Of a stretch of 64,000 nt of DNA, positions 20,551 to 31,854 are shown one piece after another. Source of the stretch: a virus; the IMG/VR virus record IMGVR_UViG_3300043411_001639, positions 32,001-96,000 of that record. One strand, written 5' to 3'. Numbering within the stretch: the stretch's first letter is position 1; the number at the start of each line of letters is the position of its first letter. The notes beneath the pieces are model-generated. The model made no database searches, was not told the origin of the DNA, and was given only the letters and a program-made list of their open reading frames with translations. A program made the position numbers and the translations under genes.

Positions 20551-20564
20551 TTGACACTCATAGT

Positions 20565-20677
20565 CTGAACAGTTAGGTGAACCCTTCAACAACCCAACGG
20601 AGCGTTTTCCTAACTGTTCAGGCAATGAACTACTGTCCGCGCTTCATTCATAGAGCGCCCGTCGTTGATTGCCTGAA
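20565..20677. other. overlapping, partly exclusive inverted repeats in a non-coding gap
   Basis: CTGAACAGTTAGG (20565)/CCTAACTGTTCAG (20609); TTCAGGCAAT (20617)/ATTGCCTGAA (20668). Confidence 0.75.
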
Positions 20678-20906
20678 ACCCTCTCAAACCGGAATAACCT
20701 GGAATCTTTGGAAAACCCTAGAGGCAAAACAGTTGACACTAGCAGCTCTCACAGAGGGTTGCAACAGAGAAGTTTCATCTAGCAACCTCCGTGCCAAAAC
20801 TGAGATTAGCTGAACTAATCTAGCTGTTGCAACCTCTCTTGGAACCTGCTAGTGTCGGGTTGTCAGGTGAGGGATAGCAGGGCAGAACGAACGAAGGAAA
20901 AAAACC

Positions 20907-21050
20907 ATGATGGAACTCTCGCTCAACTTCTCCGTTTCTCTGGAAACCATCACGGGCTTCACGCCGGTTTTCGTGAGCATCATGGCCGCGTGTTTCGTCA
21001 TGGGAGCGTCTCTCCGGTTCCTGGTGTGCAAGGTCCGCGCCAACTTCTAG
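20907..21050 (+). CDS. small membrane protein (47 aa)
   Basis: promoter 20827, GAAGGA RBS, GC-rich third codon positions, one hydrophobic helix; translated by hand. Confidence 0.7.
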   Translation: MMELSLNFSVSLETITGFTPVFVSIMAACFVMGASLRFLVCKVRANF

Positions 21051-21110
21051 AAGTTAGCTGAACTAACTTCGGGTGTTGCAACCTCTGAGAGAACCTGCTA
21101 GGGTAAGAGC

Positions 21111-21221
21111 ATGAAAAAGGCGAACAAGGGCAAGCGGTGGAACAAGCGGGAAAAACGCCGCAACGAATCGCTGGACGGTCGCAAGCAACGGCGCAAGTTT
21201 CTCGCGAGTCTCACTGACTGA
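21111..21221 (+). CDS. 36-aa highly basic leaderless peptide (MKKANKGKRWNKREKRR..)
   Basis: ATG 6 nt after -10 box 21099-21104; translated by hand. Confidence 0.65.
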   Translation: MKKANKGKRWNKREKRRNESLDGRKQRRKFLASLTD

Positions 21222-21309
21222 CTGGCATAGAGGTTGCAACGGAAAACCAACTGTTGCAACCTCCCCGAAAGGGTGCTAAGGTAGAAGAGTAGGTAACAGA
21301 AGGAAGAAA

Positions 21310-21392
21310 GCTCTAGTGGCGGAATGGTAGACGCGGGGGTTTCAAAAACCTCTTCCCGCAAGGGAGTGAGAGTTCAAGTCTCTCTTGGAGCA
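21310..21392 (+). tRNA. tRNA-Leu(CAA)
   Basis: GCTCTAG/TTGGAGC acceptor; GGGGT-TTCAAAA-ACCTC anticodon arm; long variable arm. Confidence 0.92.
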
Positions 21393-21435
21393 CAAAAGCC
21401 ACAAACGGCGCGGCAGTGTCGTTGGCTTGTCTCTT

Positions 21436-21508
21436 GCAACGGTAGCTCAACTGGCAGAGCATTCGGCTTTTAACCGAAGGGTTGAGGGTTCAAGTCCCTC
21501 CCGTCGCA
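21436..21508 (+). tRNA. tRNA-Lys(TTT)
   Basis: GCAACGG/CCGTCGC acceptor (one mismatch); TTCGG-CTTTTAA-CCGAA anticodon arm. Confidence 0.92.
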
Positions 21509-21610
21509 CCGTGGTCGGCACCAGTCTTGCAAACAAAAAAAGGCTGTTGCAACCAACCCCGCAACCTGCTAGTCTAAGAATGTAGCAGGAAACAACCAAC
21601 GGAGTCAAGA

Positions 21611-22003
21611 ATGGCAAAGCGCACGACGGAAGAAACCATCGCTCACACCGTCAAGGTCAAGGGTATCGTCGCCGACCGCTCCGGCATCAACAACACGCGT
21701 GGCGCGCGTGCGATCATCGCGTCGGAAGTCTTCGGCGTCTCGCAGACACTCCGCAACCACGGCGCCGCCGCCGTCTTCGCGCTCCGCAACGGGGATAACG
21801 TCGTGGTGCTGTCCCGCGTCGCCCGCAAGGGCCGCCCGCGCTGGAGGCAAGTCGGGCACGGATCTTCCACGGTCATCACGTTCGCCCGCGTGCTCTCCGG
21901 TGGCAAGGTTTCCAAGGTCGTCAAGGCGTCCACGCTTGCGGAGCTCTGCAACAAGGGTGCCCGCTACATCGGGACGCGCGCCAACCTCTACGGCAACGGC
22001 TAG
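21611..22003 (+). CDS. basic hypothetical protein with high-GC codon usage
   Basis: promoter 21547, GGAG RBS, strong G/C bias at third positions in this frame. Confidence 0.85.
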   Translation: MAKRTTEETIAHTVKVKGIVADRSGINNTRGARAIIASEVFGVSQTLRNHGAAAVFALRNGDNVVVLSRVARKGRPRWRQVGHGSSTVITFARVLSGGKVSKVVKASTLAELCNKGARYIGTRANLYGNG

Positions 22004-22314
22004 AACCCGCTGGCACGAAGGTTGCAAGGGCAAGGCAAAGAAAACCCGCTGTTGCAACCTGTTTCGGAACCTGCTAGAGTCTGAATGTAAGGTGAGAGGT
22101 AGGGAAGACAGAGAACCGGAAGGAAAAAGAATCCGGTTGCAACCCTCCCCGAAACCTGCTAGAGTCAGAGAGTGAGAAAAGGAACGGGGCCAGAAACTAG
22201 ACGAAACAATCTGGTTGCAACCCTCCGAAGAGTCTGGTAAGGTAAGAGTCAGAAAGGGAGTCAGGGTGGCAATGTCGCCTAGCCCACTCCCAAACCAGGA
22301 AAGAAAAAAGAATA

Positions 22315-23034
22315 ATGAACTCCATCAACGCCACCTCGCCCGTCGTTTCCTCGGATTCCATCGTCGCCGACCCCAACGCCTCGCAGGAGAACACCATGCA
22401 CACCCCCGACAACTCCGCCGACGCTTCGCCCCTGTCCATGCGCCCCGCGGATCGCGCCGCCCGCGGCGAGTCCCTCACGCCCGACGAGGAGGGCGCGCTC
22501 GCGGCCAGCGACGCGGCGGAGTTCCTCGCCTACCTCCGCGCACAGCGCGCGTACCTCGCCTCCGCGCTCGCGGCGGCGAAGGCCCCCAAGGTTCCGGGGA
22601 AGCGCGGGCCGCAGGGTCCCCAGCGCGGGAAGGTGGTCACGCTGGCCGACGGCCGGATGATGATCGTCGGCGCGGGTCTCGGCAAGCGGGCCGCGTTCAA
22701 TTCCGCGAAGGGTGCGCTCGGGGCGCGCGCGGAGCTCCTCCCCGGCGACGCGCTGAACATCGCCCTCGTGACGTTCGGGGCGGACGGGAGCGGCGTCCTC
22801 TACACCGTCAACGGTGTCGCGGGCGAGACGCCCCGCGGGAAGGGTTCGCCCGGTGTGTCGCTCTCTTGCACGCGGGCGGACAACGGCGAAGAGGTCGTGT
22901 TGTTTCCGACGATGGATTCCATCGTGGACGCGGTGTGCATCACGGGTTCCGCGGCGCTCCTCGCGGTGCTTCCGGTGCTTCAAGCGCAGAAGGTGCGCGC
23001 CGCGCGCGCAGCGAAGACGCCCGCCACGGTCTGA
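22315..23034 (+). CDS. Ala/Gly-rich hypothetical protein with high-GC codon usage, under three tandem promoters
   Basis: promoters 22052, 22137, 22215; AGGA upstream; third-position G/C bias picks this frame. Confidence 0.85.
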   Translation: MNSINATSPVVSSDSIVADPNASQENTMHTPDNSADASPLSMRPADRAARGESLTPDEEGALAASDAAEFLAYLRAQRAYLASALAAAKAPKVPGKRGPQGPQRGKVVTLADGRMMIVGAGLGKRAAFNSAKGALGARAELLPGDALNIALVTFGADGSGVLYTVNGVAGETPRGKGSPGVSLSCTRADNGEEVVLFPTMDSIVDAVCITGSAALLAVLPVLQAQKVRAARAAKTPATV

Positions 23035-23062
23035 CGCCTCACCCGCCAGAATCCCACCTAAA

Positions 23063-23111
23063 GAAACCCCCCGCGACGACCCTAGAGAATAGGGAACCGT
23101 CCGGGGGTTTC
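23063..23111 (+). terminator. GC-rich stem-loop after the last early gene
   Basis: GAAACCCCC..CCCTA-GAGAA-TAGGG..GGGGGTTTC, followed by CCCGTTTT. Confidence 0.5.
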
Positions 23112-23225
23112 CCCGTTTTACAACTTTGACCCCCTCTAGCCCCTGTACCCCCCCACCTCTACCTACCCGGACCCAGGAGGTGGTTGGCATGGAGGGTGCA
23201 TGACCCACGAGATTCTAAACCAGAT

Positions 23226-23966
23226 AAAATTTTTCTGGGAATTTTTCTATTTATGGGGACCTTTATGTTATATTTTTCTAAATGGTTGTTTGAAAACGAC
23301 AATATAATTGATGATTTAAATACAGTGTTTTCAATTCAAGAAACTATAAAAACTGTTGAACAACATGGTTTAGAGCAGCTTGGTTTAGGAAACAACGAAG
23401 GAACAACAAGAATTGTTTTTAAACATCCAAATAACAAACAAGTGATTAAAATACCAAGACAAACAACATATCTCAAATATAATTTTAATGAGATTAAATC
23501 ATTTGCTTGTCTTGGAAAAGAATATGCTGCTGAGATAACAGAGTTTCATCCTAAAGGTTATTGGTTGATAATGGAACTTGTTAAACCATTTAAAGATCAT
23601 CAAGAGTTTAATCAGAAACTCCAACAAGTTTTAAACTTACCAGATACTATCAATGACGAACGTTTTTTATATAAAGCAGTGGTTCAGTTTAAAGAACAAG
23701 AAAGATTAAAACTTTCAACTAAACTATGTCATTCAAGTGAATGGTTTAGAAAACTTACAACCAAACTTTCCAGTTGTGAAGTAGGAGGACAAGATTTAAA
23801 CTGGTTTAACTTTGGATTAAGAGAATCAACAGGTGAATTGGTTATGTTAGACTATGCTGATTTATTAACAAATCCGGCTGTTCAACAACCTTGTTCCATT
23901 TAAAACTAAAAAAGGTTCATAAAATAGGGCGGGTAATGCCTCTGAAAATTTTTCTGGGAATTTTTC
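23226..23966 (+). repeat. 22-bp exact repeat AAAATTTTTCTGGGAATTTTTC (23226-23247, 23945-23966)
   Basis: identical copies, each immediately before a TATTTA late-promoter-like motif. Confidence 0.85.
23265..23903 (+). CDS. protein kinase-like protein 1 with capsid-targeting-like N-terminus
   Basis: EGTTRIVF, VIKIP, NxNE, LIMELV, DLNWFNFG, LDYA; start MLYFSKWLFE. Confidence 0.8.
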   Translation: MLYFSKWLFENDNIIDDLNTVFSIQETIKTVEQHGLEQLGLGNNEGTTRIVFKHPNNKQVIKIPRQTTYLKYNFNEIKSFACLGKEYAAEITEFHPKGYWLIMELVKPFKDHQEFNQKLQQVLNLPDTINDERFLYKAVVQFKEQERLKLSTKLCHSSEWFRKLTTKLSSCEVGGQDLNWFNFGLRESTGELVMLDYADLLTNPAVQQPCSI

Positions 23967-23984
23967 ATATTTACCTCTAGTCTG

Positions 23985-24491
23985 ATGATAACATTACAAG
24001 AGTTTATATTTCTTCAAGAGGGAGACTTAAAACTAGTATCTCTTCATGGATGTGGGGAAGATAGTTTTGATATTGAACTTGATAATGATGAGGTTATAGA
24101 TTGCAATGATATAGCATCTAGTGTTGAGGAATTGTTTTACGATTCAAAGATTAGAATCATGAGGAATGAGAATCCTTATAATGCTATAATTGATTCTGGT
24201 ACTGGAAGGGTGATAGGGGCTAGTGTTATATCTTATGAACTACCAGAGGATTATGATGAATTTGAGCATGGTAATGGGGTTGTAACATTTAGTGTTGTGG
24301 TTGATCCAGAGTTTAGGGGACAGAGATTAGCTGAGAAGTTAATAAGGGATATAGTGAATAATCATAGGAGACAAGTTATCAAGGCTCAGGTTATTAATCC
24401 TATTATGGAGAAGATACTTATTAACTTAGGATTTGTTAAGGTTAGTGAATCAGGTTCTAGAGAAGGATTGGTTTATCAGTTAAAGAGATGA
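23985..24491 (+). CDS. GNAT acetyltransferase with capsid-targeting-like N-terminus
   Basis: VVVDPEFRGQRLA acetyl-CoA motif A; NPxxxxxLxNLGF; begins MITLQEFIFLQE. Confidence 0.85.
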   Translation: MITLQEFIFLQEGDLKLVSLHGCGEDSFDIELDNDEVIDCNDIASSVEELFYDSKIRIMRNENPYNAIIDSGTGRVIGASVISYELPEDYDEFEHGNGVVTFSVVVDPEFRGQRLAEKLIRDIVNNHRRQVIKAQVINPIMEKILINLGFVKVSESGSREGLVYQLKR

Positions 24492-25204
24492 ATAGTTTAT
24501 TTATGTTTGATCGGTTTTTGTTTGAGACTACTATTAATATCAATCCAGATAAAGTTATTTATGATCTTAAACAGGCAACAAGTTTTGGTGAGATTCAAGA
24601 GATAGGATATAAACTTAAACAGATAGGTGATGGTACTACTAGGAACGTGTATGACTTAGGAAGGAACCTTGTTCTCAAACTAGCAAAGTATCCTAATAAT
24701 AGTATCAGTAATTTAAAAGAGGTAGATTCATATCAGTGTTTAGGAAAAGAATACGCAGCACAGATAGTTGATTTTGATACAGAGAACTATTACTGGTTGG
24801 TTATGGAGAGGGTTAAAACTATAACAGCTAGAGAATTTCAGTCAAAGTTAACAGAGCTTATAGGATTTCCATTAACTCCAGAAGATATAGCATCTAGGTT
24901 TAAGACTGTTATTAGTAAAGAAGTTTATGTGGTGGGCGGTTATTATTATCTTCCACAGGTGTTACAACCTGGAAGATATCATTCCGGTACAGAGAGAGGA
25001 AGAGGATTAAGACAGTTACATGGTTTGTTATGCGGTCATAGTTCTTGGTTTAAGGAATTCAATAATAGATTAGTTAAGTGCAGAATTATGGCTGGTGATC
25101 TTGGATTTGGTAACTTTGGATTAAGACTGTCAACGGATGAGTTGGTGTTACTTGATTATGGGTTTGAGATGATTGAAGGGGATCAGATTGAATGTCATTC
25201 TTGA
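24488..25204 (+). CDS. protein kinase-like protein 2
   Basis: IGDGTTRNVY, VLKLA, NLKE, LVMERV, DLGFGNFG, LLDYG. Confidence 0.85.
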   Translation: MNSLFMFDRFLFETTININPDKVIYDLKQATSFGEIQEIGYKLKQIGDGTTRNVYDLGRNLVLKLAKYPNNSISNLKEVDSYQCLGKEYAAQIVDFDTENYYWLVMERVKTITAREFQSKLTELIGFPLTPEDIASRFKTVISKEVYVVGGYYYLPQVLQPGRYHSGTERGRGLRQLHGLLCGHSSWFKEFNNRLVKCRIMAGDLGFGNFGLRLSTDELVLLDYGFEMIEGDQIECHS

Positions 25205-25869
25205 TGAAGATATTGTTTTTTGAGGATAGGAACAGTGATGTTTTTGATGGTATTACTGAGTTTAGTTCTATTAAGAAGACATTGTTAGTTAACAAGTTTA
25301 AGTTGATAGGTCATGGTACTACTAGGGATGTTTATTCTGTTCCAGGTGATGATAGTATTGTTTTAAAGGTTCCAAGGTATCCAGATGCATTTGAGGTTAA
25401 CTTCAGTGAGTTTAAGAATTTTGGTTGTTTGGGGGAGGAGTATGCAGCTCGTGTAATAGATTGTGATACAGTTAACGGTTTATGGTTATTGATGGAGCGT
25501 GTTATAACATTTAATCATTCTGATAAATTTGATATTGAGGTTAGTAAAAGGTTAGGGTTTGAGTTTAGTAAAGGTGGAATGATTAAGAAGTTTGGATTAT
25601 CTCCTGATAGTATTGCGAGGTTTCCTTTATTATCTTCGGCATTTGCTCCTGGTGATTATGACAAGGGTATTAATTTAAAGGAATTACTTTGTAAGAACAG
25701 TAAATGGTTTAGGGAATTGAACAACAGGTTAATTGATTGTGATGTTTACGCGGAGGATCTTGATTTTAAAAACTTTGGATTAAGAAGAGATACTGGAGAG
25801 TTAATATTACTTGATTATGGATTTAGTGCTAGTAAAGATAGTACATTAGGGGTACAGTCAAAATGCTGA
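25192..25869 (+). CDS. protein kinase-like protein 3
   Basis: IGHGTTRDVY, VLKVP, NFSE, LLMERV, DLDFKNFG, LLDYG. Confidence 0.85.
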   Translation: MSFLMKILFFEDRNSDVFDGITEFSSIKKTLLVNKFKLIGHGTTRDVYSVPGDDSIVLKVPRYPDAFEVNFSEFKNFGCLGEEYAARVIDCDTVNGLWLLMERVITFNHSDKFDIEVSKRLGFEFSKGGMIKKFGLSPDSIARFPLLSSAFAPGDYDKGINLKELLCKNSKWFRELNNRLIDCDVYAEDLDFKNFGLRRDTGELILLDYGFSASKDSTLGVQSKC

Positions 25870-25943
25870 TGAATCTGAATGAGTTTATATTTTTAAAGGA
25901 ACTAAAGAGTTACTTGGTTAGACCTAAAAACTATCAGTATTAA
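25869..25943 (+). pseudogene. 24-aa remnant consisting mostly of a capsid-targeting-like tag (MNLNEFIFLKE..)
   Basis: TGATG coupling to kinase 3; near-identical to the GNAT N-terminus. Confidence 0.55.
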
Positions 25944-26362
25944 GAGTTGATGAATTGATTTAATTTATTATTAAACTCAGTATCTTCTGGAAGTTTTGTT
26001 ACTATGATTTCTGTTGGATTGGGTTTGAATCTCTTCTCACCTTTGTTTACTAGTTGGTTATAAGCTAGGAACTCAGTGCTGCTTAGAGCTGTTAAAATAG
26101 TTTCCAGTGCTGTTTTAAGATAGACTAGTACCTTTGGATTTTTATAATCTAGCAAAGAAAGATCTAGTGTTAGAGCGGACATTAATCTAAAGTTAAAGTT
26201 GATAGGATTGATATTTTCTTCTATTAGTATCAGGTTTTGACTGTTTAAATCTTTGATGTTGTTAGGGAAGTTCCTGTTTAAGAAACCTACCAAACCAAGA
26301 ACTAGGAATAGTCTTAGTTTTAGTGACAGCACTGACAGTTTGTTTTTTATTGAAGTTATCAT
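25940..26362 (-). CDS. hypothetical protein with N-terminal hydrophobic segment
   Basis: 140-aa ORF. Confidence 0.65.
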   Translation of the reverse strand: MITSIKNKLSVLSLKLRLFLVLGLVGFLNRNFPNNIKDLNSQNLILIEENINPINFNFRLMSALTLDLSLLDYKNPKVLVYLKTALETILTALSSTEFLAYNQLVNKGEKRFKPNPTEIIVTKLPEDTEFNNKLNQFINS

Positions 26363-26373
26363 ATCTATAGTAT

Positions 26374-27183
26374 ATGAGTATTATAGCTGGTAACACAAAA
26401 CATGAAATTCCTGGTCTGAAAACAATCTGTTGGGAAGACAGTGCTACAGATCAGATTAAATATATCACAGATAAATCTGATAGAAAACAATGGATCAGAG
26501 GTATTGTATGTCATACTAACAAAGGGAAGACAGGAGTTGTTTTACCTGGAGTTGGTAGTGATAGCGGTCAAGCTGTTAAACTTGCTAGATATCAGACAAA
26601 CACAGACAGACAAGTAAGCTGGGATTTTACAGAAGAACAGGATGGTGTTTGGTATATTCAGAACGATGTATTAAAACACTATAGTTGGCAAGCTGGAATG
26701 GTTAACGGGGTTACTTGTGGATTTGAGATGGTACAAGGAGAAGATGGATCTGTCTACGAGATACAGATAAAGAATGCTGTATTGTTTATAGATTTTCTTA
26801 CTGCACGTCTTGGGATACAGAGACAGATACCATGGGACAAGAAAAAGGATAAACCTGCTAGTAAACCTATAAAGAGAATCAGTGAAGACAACGGAGTTGA
26901 TGTTGTGGGTATTTATGGACATAGAAACCAAACAGACAACAGAGGTTTTGGTGATCCAGGTGATCATATATTTTATGCTCTAAGAGATGCAGGTTATGAA
27001 CTGTTTGACTATGACAACCAAGAAGATCTTAATACCTGGAAAACAAGACAGACAGAGGTTCTTAGTTTAACTTCTGGAGTTGATGGTGTTTGCGGTCCTA
27101 AGACTGTTGAACTGTTAAAACAACATGGTTATAAACACGGTATGTGGGTTTCAAGACCTATGGATAGTTTGATACAGTTATAA
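26374..27183 (+). CDS. N-acetylmuramoyl-L-alanine amidase (amidase_2) with peptidoglycan-binding tail
   Basis: IVCHT, WQAG..N, GFE, YGHR..DPG; DGVCGPKT. Confidence 0.85.
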   Translation: MSIIAGNTKHEIPGLKTICWEDSATDQIKYITDKSDRKQWIRGIVCHTNKGKTGVVLPGVGSDSGQAVKLARYQTNTDRQVSWDFTEEQDGVWYIQNDVLKHYSWQAGMVNGVTCGFEMVQGEDGSVYEIQIKNAVLFIDFLTARLGIQRQIPWDKKKDKPASKPIKRISEDNGVDVVGIYGHRNQTDNRGFGDPGDHIFYALRDAGYELFDYDNQEDLNTWKTRQTEVLSLTSGVDGVCGPKTVELLKQHGYKHGMWVSRPMDSLIQL

Positions 27184-27204
27184 CAACTAGGGTAAACTAT
27201 AATC

Positions 27205-27456
27205 ATGATACCCAACACTAAGATAAGAAGAGAGTTCCAGAGAGTTAGTACAGATCCTCTGTTGTTCCAAGAAGTTATAAACCACCTGATAGTTTGGAAG
27301 GATTTAGCTACTGGTTTAACAGAAGAAAAACTTGATAAATCTATTAGGAGAAAAATCTACAAACCAGGATCTGATATTGAGAGAACGATGAATGGTGAAG
27401 AATACTGGACAGATCCAGTTACAGGAATTGAGCATAGATTGGTAGCGGTGAATTAA
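27205..27456 (+). CDS. hypothetical protein
   Basis: ORF track. Confidence 0.65.
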   Translation: MIPNTKIRREFQRVSTDPLLFQEVINHLIVWKDLATGLTEEKLDKSIRRKIYKPGSDIERTMNGEEYWTDPVTGIEHRLVAVN

Positions 27457-27458
27457 TA

Positions 27459-28229
27459 ATGATGACTCAAGATGAACAAAAACTATTATCAACCTATGCA
27501 GTGCCTAGTTGGTTAGATCCTCTAACAGAGATCAAACAACCTGATCAACCTGAATGGTTTAGTGAGTTAACCAAGGAAAGAAAGGCAGTTGAGTTTATTC
27601 ATTTGTCTTTGTTTTGTTTATATCCATTAGTTAGCCACAATATTGAAAGAGCATTCCAGGTTTGTTCTAATTCAATCTCTGAAACTGGATGGGGTAAAAC
27701 CTGGAGAGGTTGGAATTTTGGTGGTTGGAAAGTAAGACAATCTTGGGTTGAACAACACAGACAAGATCATCAGGGTAAAAACCCTAGTTGGTTTAGAGCT
27801 TTAGGACACGTTAAAAGTGGTGATGCTCCTGTTGTGTTTTATAGAGGGTTTAACTCTCCAGAAGAGTTCTATCAAGAGTGGGTTGACAAATTTATTCCAA
27901 GAATATCTCCTATAGATCATAGATACCATAAAACAGGTAAACAGTTCTGGTCTACAGAAGATGAACAATGGTTTCTTGAGTTATGTTTAGCTGGATATAA
28001 AGGTGAAGTAACTCAGGCAAAACCTGAAAAATCTTATGGTGATTTTAAACAAATAGTTAAAAGAGCAAAAACTCTGTTTGTACAAGATGTTTTAAACTTA
28101 GAAACTGATGGCAGTTGGGGTAAGATATCCAAACAAACAAGCAAAGAAGCTAATCTTGTTGATTTATTGCAAGGACACTGGTTGAGTGTTAATGAATTTA
28201 AACTGTTAGTTGATGAACTGAACAGCTAG
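27459..28229 (+). CDS. GH73/FlgJ-like glucosaminidase with peptidoglycan-binding tail
   Basis: ETGWG..NFGGWK..YRGFNSPEE..AGY; DGSWG. Confidence 0.7.
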   Translation: MMTQDEQKLLSTYAVPSWLDPLTEIKQPDQPEWFSELTKERKAVEFIHLSLFCLYPLVSHNIERAFQVCSNSISETGWGKTWRGWNFGGWKVRQSWVEQHRQDHQGKNPSWFRALGHVKSGDAPVVFYRGFNSPEEFYQEWVDKFIPRISPIDHRYHKTGKQFWSTEDEQWFLELCLAGYKGEVTQAKPEKSYGDFKQIVKRAKTLFVQDVLNLETDGSWGKISKQTSKEANLVDLLQGHWLSVNEFKLLVDELNS

Positions 28230-30498: not shown

Positions 30499-31854
30499 AT
30501 GAATAACATGCAACTACAAGAAGAGATAAATTTAAACAGACTAAAACAAGAAACAGAGTTCAACAAAGTTTTCATAGAAAACAACTTGTTCTTTCTTGAT
30601 AATATTGAGGAACTCCAACAGAGTTTAACAGAACAGATAGAAACTGCTGAACAAGCTCTTGAATTTTATAATCTTCCAAAGATAAAAAATCATACTCAGA
30701 AACTTTGGGAACAACTAGCTGAATCTATTGCTCAAGGAGAACAAGAAAAAACCATAGGTTCTATCTGTGAGATATTTAATACTTATGCTTGTATAGCAGA
30801 TGAATTAGATGAAGAAAGAAAACTAGTTCTTGAAAGTAAAAACAACTGGTTTAAATTCAGCCTAAAACCTGAACTAGTACAAGAGTTAACTTCTACACTA
30901 GATTCCAGCCAGAAGCAACAACTGTCAGAACAACTAGAATCAGTTAAGCATCCAGTTTTAATGGAACAACTAGAGTTCTTACAAGAAAAAGTAACCACTG
31001 AAAACATTCAAGAACTACAACAAGCTGTTGCAGCATTAACCAAACTTGTTAAGAGTTTTCCTAAACTTGGTGAAATTAACAAACTTGTTCAGAAAACAAA
31101 TGTTGAGGTTGTTAACATGATCAGAAATAAAGGGTTTTTAAGCTCATTTAATCTTTCTGCTACAAGACTTGCTGGGAAAATAACATTTGTTTATGATGGT
31201 TTATATGAATTTTTTGTTCAAGATTTACCTTTAATACTAAATCTTCCTGATATGGAAGCAACAAAATTAAATCCAGATCAAGATTTATTAACATCTCTAG
31301 GCCAGAATTCAAAAAAAGTTGAAGAGATGATAAAAGGAAGAATTGAACCAACAACCCTATCAAAACTTCTACAATTTGTTGGTTCAGGTGGGACTAAACC
31401 TTCAATTGGATCAATGATTAATTTAAATCAATTTGCTAGAGAGATGCTAGAACTCACATACACTGAGATAGAGAGTTTAACAAAATATGGTCAAGCATTA
31501 CCAAAACCCCTAGCTGCTCCTAAACCAGAACAACCAAAGCCTGGAGAAACTCAACAACCTAGTGGTCAAGAACAACCCCTACCAACTATTCCTCCAGAAT
31601 GGAGTAATCAACCCACAACACCTGATAAACTTGAGACCATTAAAAAAGCTACCAAAGAAGATTCTGGACAGATGATCATTAATTTTAGAGATAATAAGGG
31701 TCAACCTCTTCCAGATAATGAAATGGTTAAATTATTAAAACTTCCCAAAGAACAACTGGTACAAATTCTTGATAAACTAGCAGAGAAGAACAATACACCA
31801 ACCCCCCCATCTTCACCACCTACCCCTAATGCTCCTGGTTCAACAGGAAACTAA
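30499..31854 (+). CDS. probable virion core/scaffold-like protein with Pro-rich C-terminus
   Basis: helical E/Q/L-rich sequence with many LxE sites; ATACTTA motif upstream. Confidence 0.55.
   Translation: MNNMQLQEEINLNRLKQETEFNKVFIENNLFFLDNIEELQQSLTEQIETAEQALEFYNLPKIKNHTQKLWEQLAESIAQGEQEKTIGSICEIFNTYACIADELDEERKLVLESKNNWFKFSLKPELVQELTSTLDSSQKQQLSEQLESVKHPVLMEQLEFLQEKVTTENIQELQQAVAALTKLVKSFPKLGEINKLVQKTNVEVVNMIRNKGFLSSFNLSATRLAGKITFVYDGLYEFFVQDLPLILNLPDMEATKLNPDQDLLTSLGQNSKKVEEMIKGRIEPTTLSKLLQFVGSGGTKPSIGSMINLNQFAREMLELTYTEIESLTKYGQALPKPLAAPKPEQPKPGETQQPSGQEQPLPTIPPEWSNQPTTPDKLETIKKATKEDSGQMIINFRDNKGQPLPDNEMVKLLKLPKEQLVQILDKLAEKNNTPTPPSSPPTPNAPGSTGN

Follow-up and report, generated by a model that had tools for sequence, protein, structure and literature searches.

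A conserved GC-rich gene block in an AT-rich T4-like phage as a candidate array of immediate-early cassettes in host-readable codons

Genes and signals of the GC-rich block

The stretch of DNA analysed here, hereafter the window, comprises 64,000 nucleotides (nt) and corresponds to bases 32001-96000 of the virus record IMGVR_UViG_3300043411_001639, a contig of 156,732 bp with 35.1% guanine plus cytosine (GC), which is classed as linear and is 43% complete according to CheckV. Within this window we investigated a GC-rich block, or island, at positions 20850-23200, in which four small protein-coding genes and two tRNA genes are interspersed with promoters and other conserved elements (Table 1), and which ends abruptly against AT-rich DNA at about 23.2 kb, a point referred to as the junction. 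The phage is a distant T4-like myovirus, possibly of jumbo size. Its large terminase has T4-type gp17 proteins as best matches (28-36% identity), and the nearest relatives of its major capsid protein are those of Flavobacterium phage immuto (43%), of an uncultured 484-kb phage and of a Microcystis phage. Runs from 17 studies of freshwater, wastewater and activated sludge contained near-identical sequence words, and 24 sequencing runs were compared as assembled contigs.

Table 1. Features of the GC-rich block and of its borders, in window coordinates. GC3, GC content at third codon positions.
Feature	Position	Strand	Remarks
Early promoter, sole minus-strand copy	20736..20764	-	Pattern scan; faces away from the block into about 180 bp without a credible open reading frame
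Sigma54-like box, TGGCAC-N5-TTGC	20782..20796	-	Strict pattern
Early promoter P1	20827..20855	+	TTGCAA, 17-nt spacer, TG-n-TAGTGT
Gene for a hydrophobic, probably membrane, 47-aa protein	20907..21050	+	GC3 0.83; relatives 87-94% identical; dN/dS 0.08-0.22
Early promoter P2	21076..21104	+	Pattern scan
Gene for a very basic 36-aa peptide	21111..21221	+	GC3 0.75; promoter-plus-gene cassette absent in some relatives
Sigma54-like box	21223..21237	+	Directly after the stop codon of the 36-aa gene
Early promoter P3	21254..21282	+	Ahead of the two tRNA genes
tRNA-Leu (anticodon CAA)	21310..21393	+	ARAGORN; Rfam 49.2 bits
tRNA-Lys (anticodon UUU)	21436..21510	+	ARAGORN; Rfam 68.2 bits
Early promoter P4	21547..21575	+	-10 element TAGTCT
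Gene for a basic 130-aa protein	21611..22003	+	GC3 0.87; no known family
Sigma54-like box TGGCACGAAGGTTGC	22011..22025	+	Full sigma54 consensus match; invariant in five lineages
Tandem early promoters P5-P7	22052..22243	+	-35 elements at 22052, 22137 and 22215; precede gene 22315
Gene for a 239-aa protein	22315..23034	+	GC3 0.91; no known family
Long conserved hairpin, invariant core CCCTAGAGAATAGGG, then CCCCGTTTT	23063..23119	+	Same fold in seven lineages
Conserved C-rich, G-poor tract	23129..23175	+	G-runs on the minus strand
Sigma54-like box, TGGCAY-N5-GTGC	23185..23199	+	Exactly at the GC/AT junction; kept in all relatives, including the 305-kb relative G001
First copy of a different upstream motif, TTTTTCTGGGAATTTTTC	23230..23247	+	Opens the AT-rich gene class; second copy at 23949-23966

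The early promoters of the block are copies of a single motif, TTGCAAC-N17-TGnTAGnGT, the strict pattern of which occurs 10 times in the window when 0.00 occurrences are expected. On the whole contig, 25 copies were found on the plus strand between contig positions 2.7 and 54.2 kb, seven of them concentrated in the last 1.4 kb, that is, in the block, together with one copy at 124.4 kb and one on the minus strand. The hallmarks of T4-like immediate-early units read by the host polymerase, namely a repeated sigma70-type promoter, a fixed spacing and an extended -10 element, are present. A preliminary description of this DNA had noted that one promoter family serves both the AT-rich and the GC-rich parts, that the genes of the block point toward the junction, and that the last of them, gene 22315 (named, as below, after its first base), has three promoters; our scans agree on all of these points, all block genes being on the plus strand. 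The same description called the genes monocistronic, which stands in that each gene has its own promoter; however, the only convincing terminator is the one after gene 22315 and, because no terminators separate the genes inside the block, nested transcripts all ending at 23.1 kb are equally likely. Hairpins with a CTGAA loop lie just upstream of two early promoters (20803-20821, before P1, and 21053-21073, before P2), and in one lineage an extra copy is inserted within the promoter array (L013, ~2480-2500). The region faced by the minus-strand promoter (20551-20764) contains a long inverted repeat (~20565-20623) and may specify a small RNA.

A second class of element consists of boxes with the -24 GG and -12 GC elements, and the TGGCAC-N5-TTGC spacing, of sigma54-dependent promoters. 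The relaxed pattern TGGCAY-N5-KTGC occurs four times in the block and once elsewhere in the entire 156.7 kb, and the strict pattern three times in the window, with 0.08 expected. Three of the four block boxes are placed 31-41 nt upstream of sigma70-like -35 elements and the fourth is the one at the junction. These boxes are conserved in relatives, and a more distant relative, G002, has seven of them in 9 kb (L025, 213-8930), with spacers that vary as they do in real sigma54 promoters. Neither PF00158 nor PF04552, that is, an AAA+ activator or a phage sigma54, was matched in genomes G000-G003. If the boxes are functional, the host would have RpoN. Such a host could belong neither to the Actinobacteria nor to the Cyanobacteria.

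At the 3' side of the block, the long hairpin after gene 22315 was not picked up by a simple terminator scan; it does show compensatory changes of paired bases across lineages, and we read it as the probable terminator of the early unit. The C-rich tract that comes next may serve to load Rho or have a structural role. Because the terminator-like hairpin and the C-rich tract are followed by a switch to the motif TTTTTCTGGGAATTTTTC, to which copies at the junction of G001 are related, the 23.2-kb junction appears to separate two transcription classes. No shared late-promoter motif emerged from a k-mer search.

Regarding the genes themselves, ratios of non-synonymous to synonymous divergence (dN/dS) against orthologues of 0.08-0.53 show that the block open reading frames (ORFs) are real genes. 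Three alternative long ORFs, at 22215-23129 on the plus strand and at 22279-23208 and 21605-22057 on the minus strand, were rejected as genes, since their GC maximum falls on codon position 1 or 2, not 3. The start codon of the 36-aa gene is found 6 nt 3' of the -10 hexamer of P2 (window 21099-21113), and therefore its mRNA may be leaderless. This gene together with its promoter (21051-21272) is missing from L001, L012 and L013 and from contigs in runs X2 and X5, with some contigs skipping 21050-21252/21272; the breakpoints adjoin promoter copies, as promoter-to-promoter recombination would predict.

The two larger proteins resisted assignment. Scans against Pfam and PHROGs returned no family for the 130-aa and the 239-aa protein, and no relationship between the two was detectable. 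AlphaFold2 models were weak, with predicted local distance difference test scores of 54 and 67, and one of five models was good for the 130-aa protein; at this low confidence, N-terminal helices and a small beta-barrel are predicted for it. In the 239-aa protein, a disordered, variable N-terminus is followed by a conserved helix, an invariant basic linker and a beta-rich domain, with another helix at the C-terminus. For both, Foldseek against the PDB gave nothing under an E value of 0.03; a wide VIA-align comparison yielded only generic small beta-barrels (Tudor, WYL, CarD-like) at Z of at most 4.8, and for the island proteins the Atlas shape search reached template-modelling (TM) scores of at most 0.45 and the ESM Atlas feature search returned nothing usable. 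That the products of genes 21611 and 22315 serve in host takeover, as had been put forward, is a reasonable guess for immediate-early phage proteins, and our searches gave no family, confident fold or partner. At the nucleotide level, comparison of the block with 50,697 phage records gave matches to the tRNAs alone, and an Rfam scan of the block likewise gave nothing besides the tRNAs.

Composition, conservation and codon usage

The block has a GC content of 61.3%, compared with 32.8% for the 2.35 kb that follow, and its densest kilobase (22001-23000; 0.650) is 9.8 standard deviations (SD) above the mean of the remaining contig (0.346, SD 0.031). Computed in 150-nt windows, GC goes from 0.31-0.39 at 19.0-19.7 kb through 0.41-0.49 at 19.7-20.9 kb to 0.51-0.56 at 20.9-21.7 kb, reaches a first peak of 0.65-0.72 at 21.6-22.0 kb (0.72 at 21.7 kb), dips to 0.49-0.54 in the promoter array, and peaks again at 0.75-0.79 at 22.4-22.8 kb (0.79 at 22.45-22.6 kb). 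It then collapses from 0.61 (23050-23199) to 0.27 (23200-23349); around 23.2 kb, some 100 bp suffice for the fall to 27-33%. The rise, the peak at 21.6-23.1 kb and the collapse that had been seen by eye are thus real. As for the gradual character of the rise, the profile gene by gene is nearer to a step than to a ramp: GC3 is 0.31-0.51 until 20.8 kb and then takes the values of the four block genes (Table 1), in all of which it exceeds the GC of first (GC1) and second (GC2) codon positions. Because the non-coding pieces of the block have a GC of only 48-53%, the apparent ramp comes down to a step in GC3 near 20.9 kb that is diluted by promoter DNA, with its GC of about 50%, and is combined with GC1 and GC2 values that climb from gene to gene. 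A gradient does exist in weaker form, as a GC3 rise over some 25 kb upstream with the block excluded (Spearman rho 0.50, p 1e-9).

The block was found in one phage lineage only. When 5.8 billion proteins were searched by indexed words, the homologues obtained for the 130-aa and the 239-aa protein were metagenomic proteins only, 74-95% identical; a profile search with the 239-aa family, covering 1.84 billion representatives, yielded one further and distant homologue, P0021 (36% identical), and a marginal match, P0022 (E 8.5e-4). Every match whose contig was examined sits in this same phage context; an IMG/VR scan with the 239-aa family gave nothing beyond the record of the window itself, and the island proteins were not found in G001-G003. 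Contigs carrying the block (L001-L005 and L011-L014), which come from at least six samples obtained through JGI, NCBI and Logan, share its gene order, promoters and GC profile. At least nine independently assembled relatives have it at the same position, and every related contig of sufficient length has the 47-, 130- and 239-aa genes in syntenic positions. Since independent assemblies agree, a chimeric assembly was rejected, and the segment, with the phage's own promoter family, is native, as had been proposed. The P5-P7 array is 89-99% identical between lineages, compared with 69-83% at neighbouring fourfold degenerate sites.

The composition of the block persists despite extensive synonymous change. 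Among nine lineages, 17-45% of the fourfold sites of the 239-aa gene differ and its GC3 is 0.90-0.94 throughout; the nine orthologues of the 130-aa gene keep theirs at 0.84-0.87, and AT-rich neighbour genes have values of 0.19-0.44. Fourfold differences in the block are C-to-G or G-to-C swaps in 57% of cases and A-T swaps in 1%, versus 2% and 37%, respectively, in the AT-rich neighbours. The contigs that encode P0021 (L015-L017), in which the conserved 269-aa protein of the lineage is 76% identical to that of the window, have the same layout, with a GC3 of 0.93, two additional GC-rich genes, a tRNA-Lys, the boxes, the terminator core and the sharp GC fall. Between the P0021 gene and the 239-aa gene, 49% of fourfold sites have changed, which amounts to saturation for a site restricted to G and C. 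A recent import drifting toward phage composition is therefore ruled out, since GC3 stays at 0.84-0.94 in all lineages despite such turnover, and a GC3 near 0.9 is actively maintained, apparently by selection.

The codons used in the block are those that the preliminary description had pointed out, namely CTC (25 of 36 Leu codons), CGC (27 of 37 Arg), GCG (37 of 67 Ala) and ACG (18 of 27 Thr), and a strong excess of CTC over CTG and of CGC over CGG is common to two diverged lineages. The contig has eight tRNA genes, Ile-UAU (two), Leu-UAA, Leu-CAA, Arg-UCU (three) and Lys-UUU, which read AUA, UUA, UUG, AGA and AAA, respectively. In that order, these codons occur 0, 0, 2.2, 0 and 4.4 times per 1000 codons in the block (6.6 combined); 2.5, 3.8, 6.3, 15.2 and 50.6 times in the early genes at 17-20.5 kb (78 combined); and 27.5, 38.5, 15.4, 24.3 and 61.5 times in the genes past 23.2 kb (167 combined, or one codon in six). 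Codons served by phage tRNAs are hence rare in early genes and common in later ones, which is the partition found in temporally adapted codon usage, and the earlier suggestion that the first proteins use host codons and that tRNAs then unlock the AT-rich genes fits these figures.

The same tendency is found in the early region without the block. There, the farther a gene lies from the closest early promoter upstream of it, the lower its GC3 and the more frequent AUA, UUA and AGA (Spearman rho -0.37 and +0.48, respectively), in a near-monotonic trend from GC3 0.40 and 17 such codons per 1000 at less than 150 nt to 0.275 and 70 per 1000 at distances above 2.5 kb. Genes that come first after a promoter have a GC3 of 0.40 and 17 of these codons per 1000, other genes 0.29 and 52 (Mann-Whitney p 4e-4). 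Promoter density rises toward the junction, and therefore the weak 25-kb ramp of GC3 is explained without an order of DNA entry.

A complete relative of 305 kb, G001, has a milder version of this pattern. A 30-kb block of its genome has a GC3 of 0.57-0.65 and 9-29 rare codons per 1000, as against 0.36-0.46 and 34-69 per 1000 outside it, and holds tRNA-Ile(UAU) and tRNA-Lys(UUU) genes. This block ends at the syntenic junction, with the same sigma54-like box and the same type of downstream motif. It also contains 25 copies of ATTCTCTTGA (L021-L023, contig 3.8-34 kb), which may be an early promoter or regulatory motif particular to that phage.

Other observations concern neighbouring or distant genes. 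Past the junction, GC skew is strongly positive at 24001-28000 (0.20-0.50 in 1-kb windows, far above the remaining contig), where genes for kinase-like and GNAT proteins are found. Three paralogues of ~220-240 aa at 23247-25869, which flank the GNAT-like gene, match phrog_4301 (E 1e-11 to 8e-15), one of them with a faint match to YrbL-type kinases, and they vary in number and order among close relatives. The orthologues of a 451-aa gene (30499-31854) in L001-L003 show 1-2% amino-acid differences, yet only 0-1% of 171 fourfold sites have changed, compared with 11-30% in neighbours, a pattern that suggests a recent sweep, a transfer or an unusual constraint on silent sites. Directly 3' of the major capsid gene there is a 584-aa ORF resembling homing endonucleases (L010:4619-6373; contig 140619-142373), with PHROG matches of the HNH and GIY-YIG types.

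Competing explanations of the block

On balance, and without great firmness, we favour the explanation that the block is an array of immediate-early cassettes in host-readable codons that ends at a boundary of transcription classes. It would be the promoter-dense far end of the early region, transcribed by the host RNA polymerase, with each cassette consisting of a promoter plus a small gene, or of a promoter plus tRNAs. Selection would hold the coding sequences in G/C-ending codons, which a GC-rich host would presumably decode, during the first minutes of infection, by means of the tRNAs that it already has; the remaining genome, with A/U-ending codons, would depend on the eight tRNAs of the phage. 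The sharp edge at 23.2 kb would then mark a change of transcription class and not necessarily an end of the DNA. We infer a GC-rich host from the tRNA set, from codon usage in the block and from the G-containing -10 elements; the CTC preference and the sigma54-like boxes, from which a Polyangia-like myxobacterium had been suggested, are real, yet they fit many GC-rich Gram-negative groups.

Several observations weigh against this explanation. GC1 and GC2 are raised too (0.70 and 0.55 in gene 22315), which pure codon selection does not require, and the non-coding parts of the block are themselves conserved and so offer no neutral yardstick. That the codons are host-like is deduced solely from the three features just listed, and early timing is likewise deduced, with RNA evidence limited to one metatranscriptome contig, identical to the window across 22633-23037 in the region of the 239-aa gene. 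In addition, the tRNA genes are served by these same early promoters, and two of these tRNA genes lie within the block, and thus any lag in tRNA supply may be short; and most early genes are still AT-rich, so that the pressure, if real, is extreme for four genes only.

The preliminary description offered a different cause, namely that a fixed physical end of the genome at or next to 23.1-23.2 kb enters the cell first, with entry order setting expression order and the GC ramp mirroring that order. Promoter density and GC3 do both climb toward the junction, where unusual conserved non-coding elements (the hairpin, the C-run tract and the box) accumulate, but promoter proximity accounts for the codon gradient without entry order. 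Several short contigs also stop near the junction, which strain-variable gene content just downstream explains by itself, and L001, L002, L003, L012, L013 and L015 read through it. In G001 the junction is only 3.8 kb from the contig start, a weak coincidence: the 'direct terminal repeat' of this genome is a 141-bp overlap that resembles the assembler signature of a circular path, and the genome assembles as a circle in which the junction is internal. The large terminase, nearest to T4-type gp17, leans toward headful packaging. Packaging of the T4 type is headful and leaves circularly permuted ends. Moreover, a self-BLAST of the 156.7-kb contig, 43% complete as it is, revealed no repeat of at least 100 bp, and there is no inflection of GC skew at the junction. 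Entry of the DNA from this end was accordingly not borne out, and we consider it very unlikely. A replication origin or terminus at the junction was rejected as well, given the lack of a skew inflection.

The composition of the block could also reflect its origin, if its genes were morons whose source was a GC-rich host or the GC-rich phages infecting it, and if repeated exchange with this GC-rich gene pool kept renewing that composition. This would agree with a composition that differs from the remaining genome, with an amino-acid content shifted toward that of GC-rich DNA (Ala, Gly and Arg abundant, GC1 and GC2 raised), and with a modular gain and loss suggested by how the cassettes are arranged and by the 36-aa cassette being there in some relatives and lacking in others. 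In T4-like phages, moreover, the early region is an established hot spot of gene turnover. However, no donor homologues emerged from the searches of 5.8 billion proteins and 1.84 billion representatives, matches being only within this phage lineage where the contig was examined; the 47-, 130- and 239-aa genes are syntenic wherever contigs are long enough; native promoters are interleaved with the genes and are better conserved than these; and saturated synonymous turnover has brought no drift toward the phage GC3 of about 0.2, which makes such an origin improbable. We equally doubt that high GC is selected at the level of DNA or RNA and not for decoding, be it as an escape from AT-targeting xenogeneic silencers or nucleases that the host has, through stability of the earliest mRNA, or by local GC-biased repair or recombination near a hot spot. 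Such causes would agree with the rise of GC1 and GC2 alongside GC3, with an effect that is regional, lies to one side and breaks off very sharply, and with the G/C-run tracts found at the junction of both this phage and G001. Nevertheless, GC3 (0.83-0.91) is far above the GC of the non-coding DNA of the block (0.48-0.53); the preferences are codon-specific, with CTC and CGC conserved across lineages; the avoided codons are exactly those read by the phage tRNAs; and, among AT-rich early genes, this avoidance weakens as the distance to the promoter grows.

Relation to known systems and implications

An array of immediate-early cassettes has counterparts in several phages. As in T4, the putative immediate-early units here have sigma70-type extended -10 promoters on one strand with many small ORFs, and tRNA genes are in the early region; unlike T4, which lacks a compositional island, the -10 element is TAGAGT-like, the -35 element is TTGCAAC, and some promoters have an upstream sigma54-like box. 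Codon usage in early versus late T4 genes, in relation to the T4 tRNAs, was reportedly treated by Cowe and Sharp in 1991. The first-step-transfer pre-early region of T5, the host-takeover module in the terminal redundancy of SPO1 and the class I genes of T7 are terminal early modules, and they resemble the block in that clusters of small early genes, served by numerous strong promoters of the host type, lie along one edge of the early region. They are located, however, at fixed ends or in long terminal repeats, in contrast to the T4-like terminase, the lack of a detected repeat and the circular complete relative in our case. AT-rich phages of GC-rich hosts with tRNAs for A/U-ending codons include the cyanomyoviruses of Synechococcus and phiKZ of Pseudomonas aeruginosa, in which, as we suppose here with a host GC that is itself deduced, a wide gap in GC between phage and host is bridged by phage tRNAs; to our knowledge, a discrete and conserved block of host-like composition has not been described in these genomes. 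The general topic of AT-rich phages, GC-rich hosts and phage tRNAs is that of a recent article, to which we refer for the topic only (Nat Microbiol 2025, PMC11726456).

A related phenomenon is the leading region of conjugative plasmids, which is codon-adapted to the host, presumably for fast expression (Shaw et al., bioRxiv 10.1101/2025.04.03.647016). The likeness is that the first-expressed genes of an incoming element are better adapted to host codons; the difference is that the adapted region of the plasmid is the first DNA to enter, whereas promoter proximity is what codon usage follows here. The closest parallel is time-of-expression codon usage in phages, including T4, where early and late genes differ in synonymous codons and phage tRNAs match the codons of later genes, as examined comparatively by Mioduser et al. 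(2017; PMC5683454). Unlike in those phages, the contrast in the block is extreme (GC3 0.9 versus 0.2 in one genome), involves only four genes, all at the same margin of the early region, follows promoter distance from gene to gene and persists through saturated synonymous change. Our preferred reading of the block is time-of-expression codon adaptation in an extreme form.

A bolder and rather tentative possibility is that this 'two-dialect' genome works as a timing device, with a few immediate-early genes in host codons and a remainder that becomes fully readable once the decoding kit of the phage, including tRNA-Ile(UAU), Leu(UAA), Arg(UCU) and Lys(UUU), is present, and that selection has kept this split through complete synonymous turnover. 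If this were true, and if the phage depletes host tRNAs late in infection, the GC-rich genes would switch themselves off.

For an uncultured family of large T4-like phages of freshwater and wastewater, four lineage-specific proteins are hereby flagged as candidate immediate-early proteins, together with conserved regulatory elements that include sigma54-like boxes. That early and late phage genes differ in codon usage was already known, but such differences are usually modest and statistical, whereas here the difference is stark, discrete and conserved, with a GC3 of 0.9 beside one of 0.2. It may therefore provide a clean natural case in which to ask whether the untouched tRNA pool of the host limits translation in the first minutes of infection, and how the tRNA sets and aminoacyl-tRNA synthetases of phages fit in.

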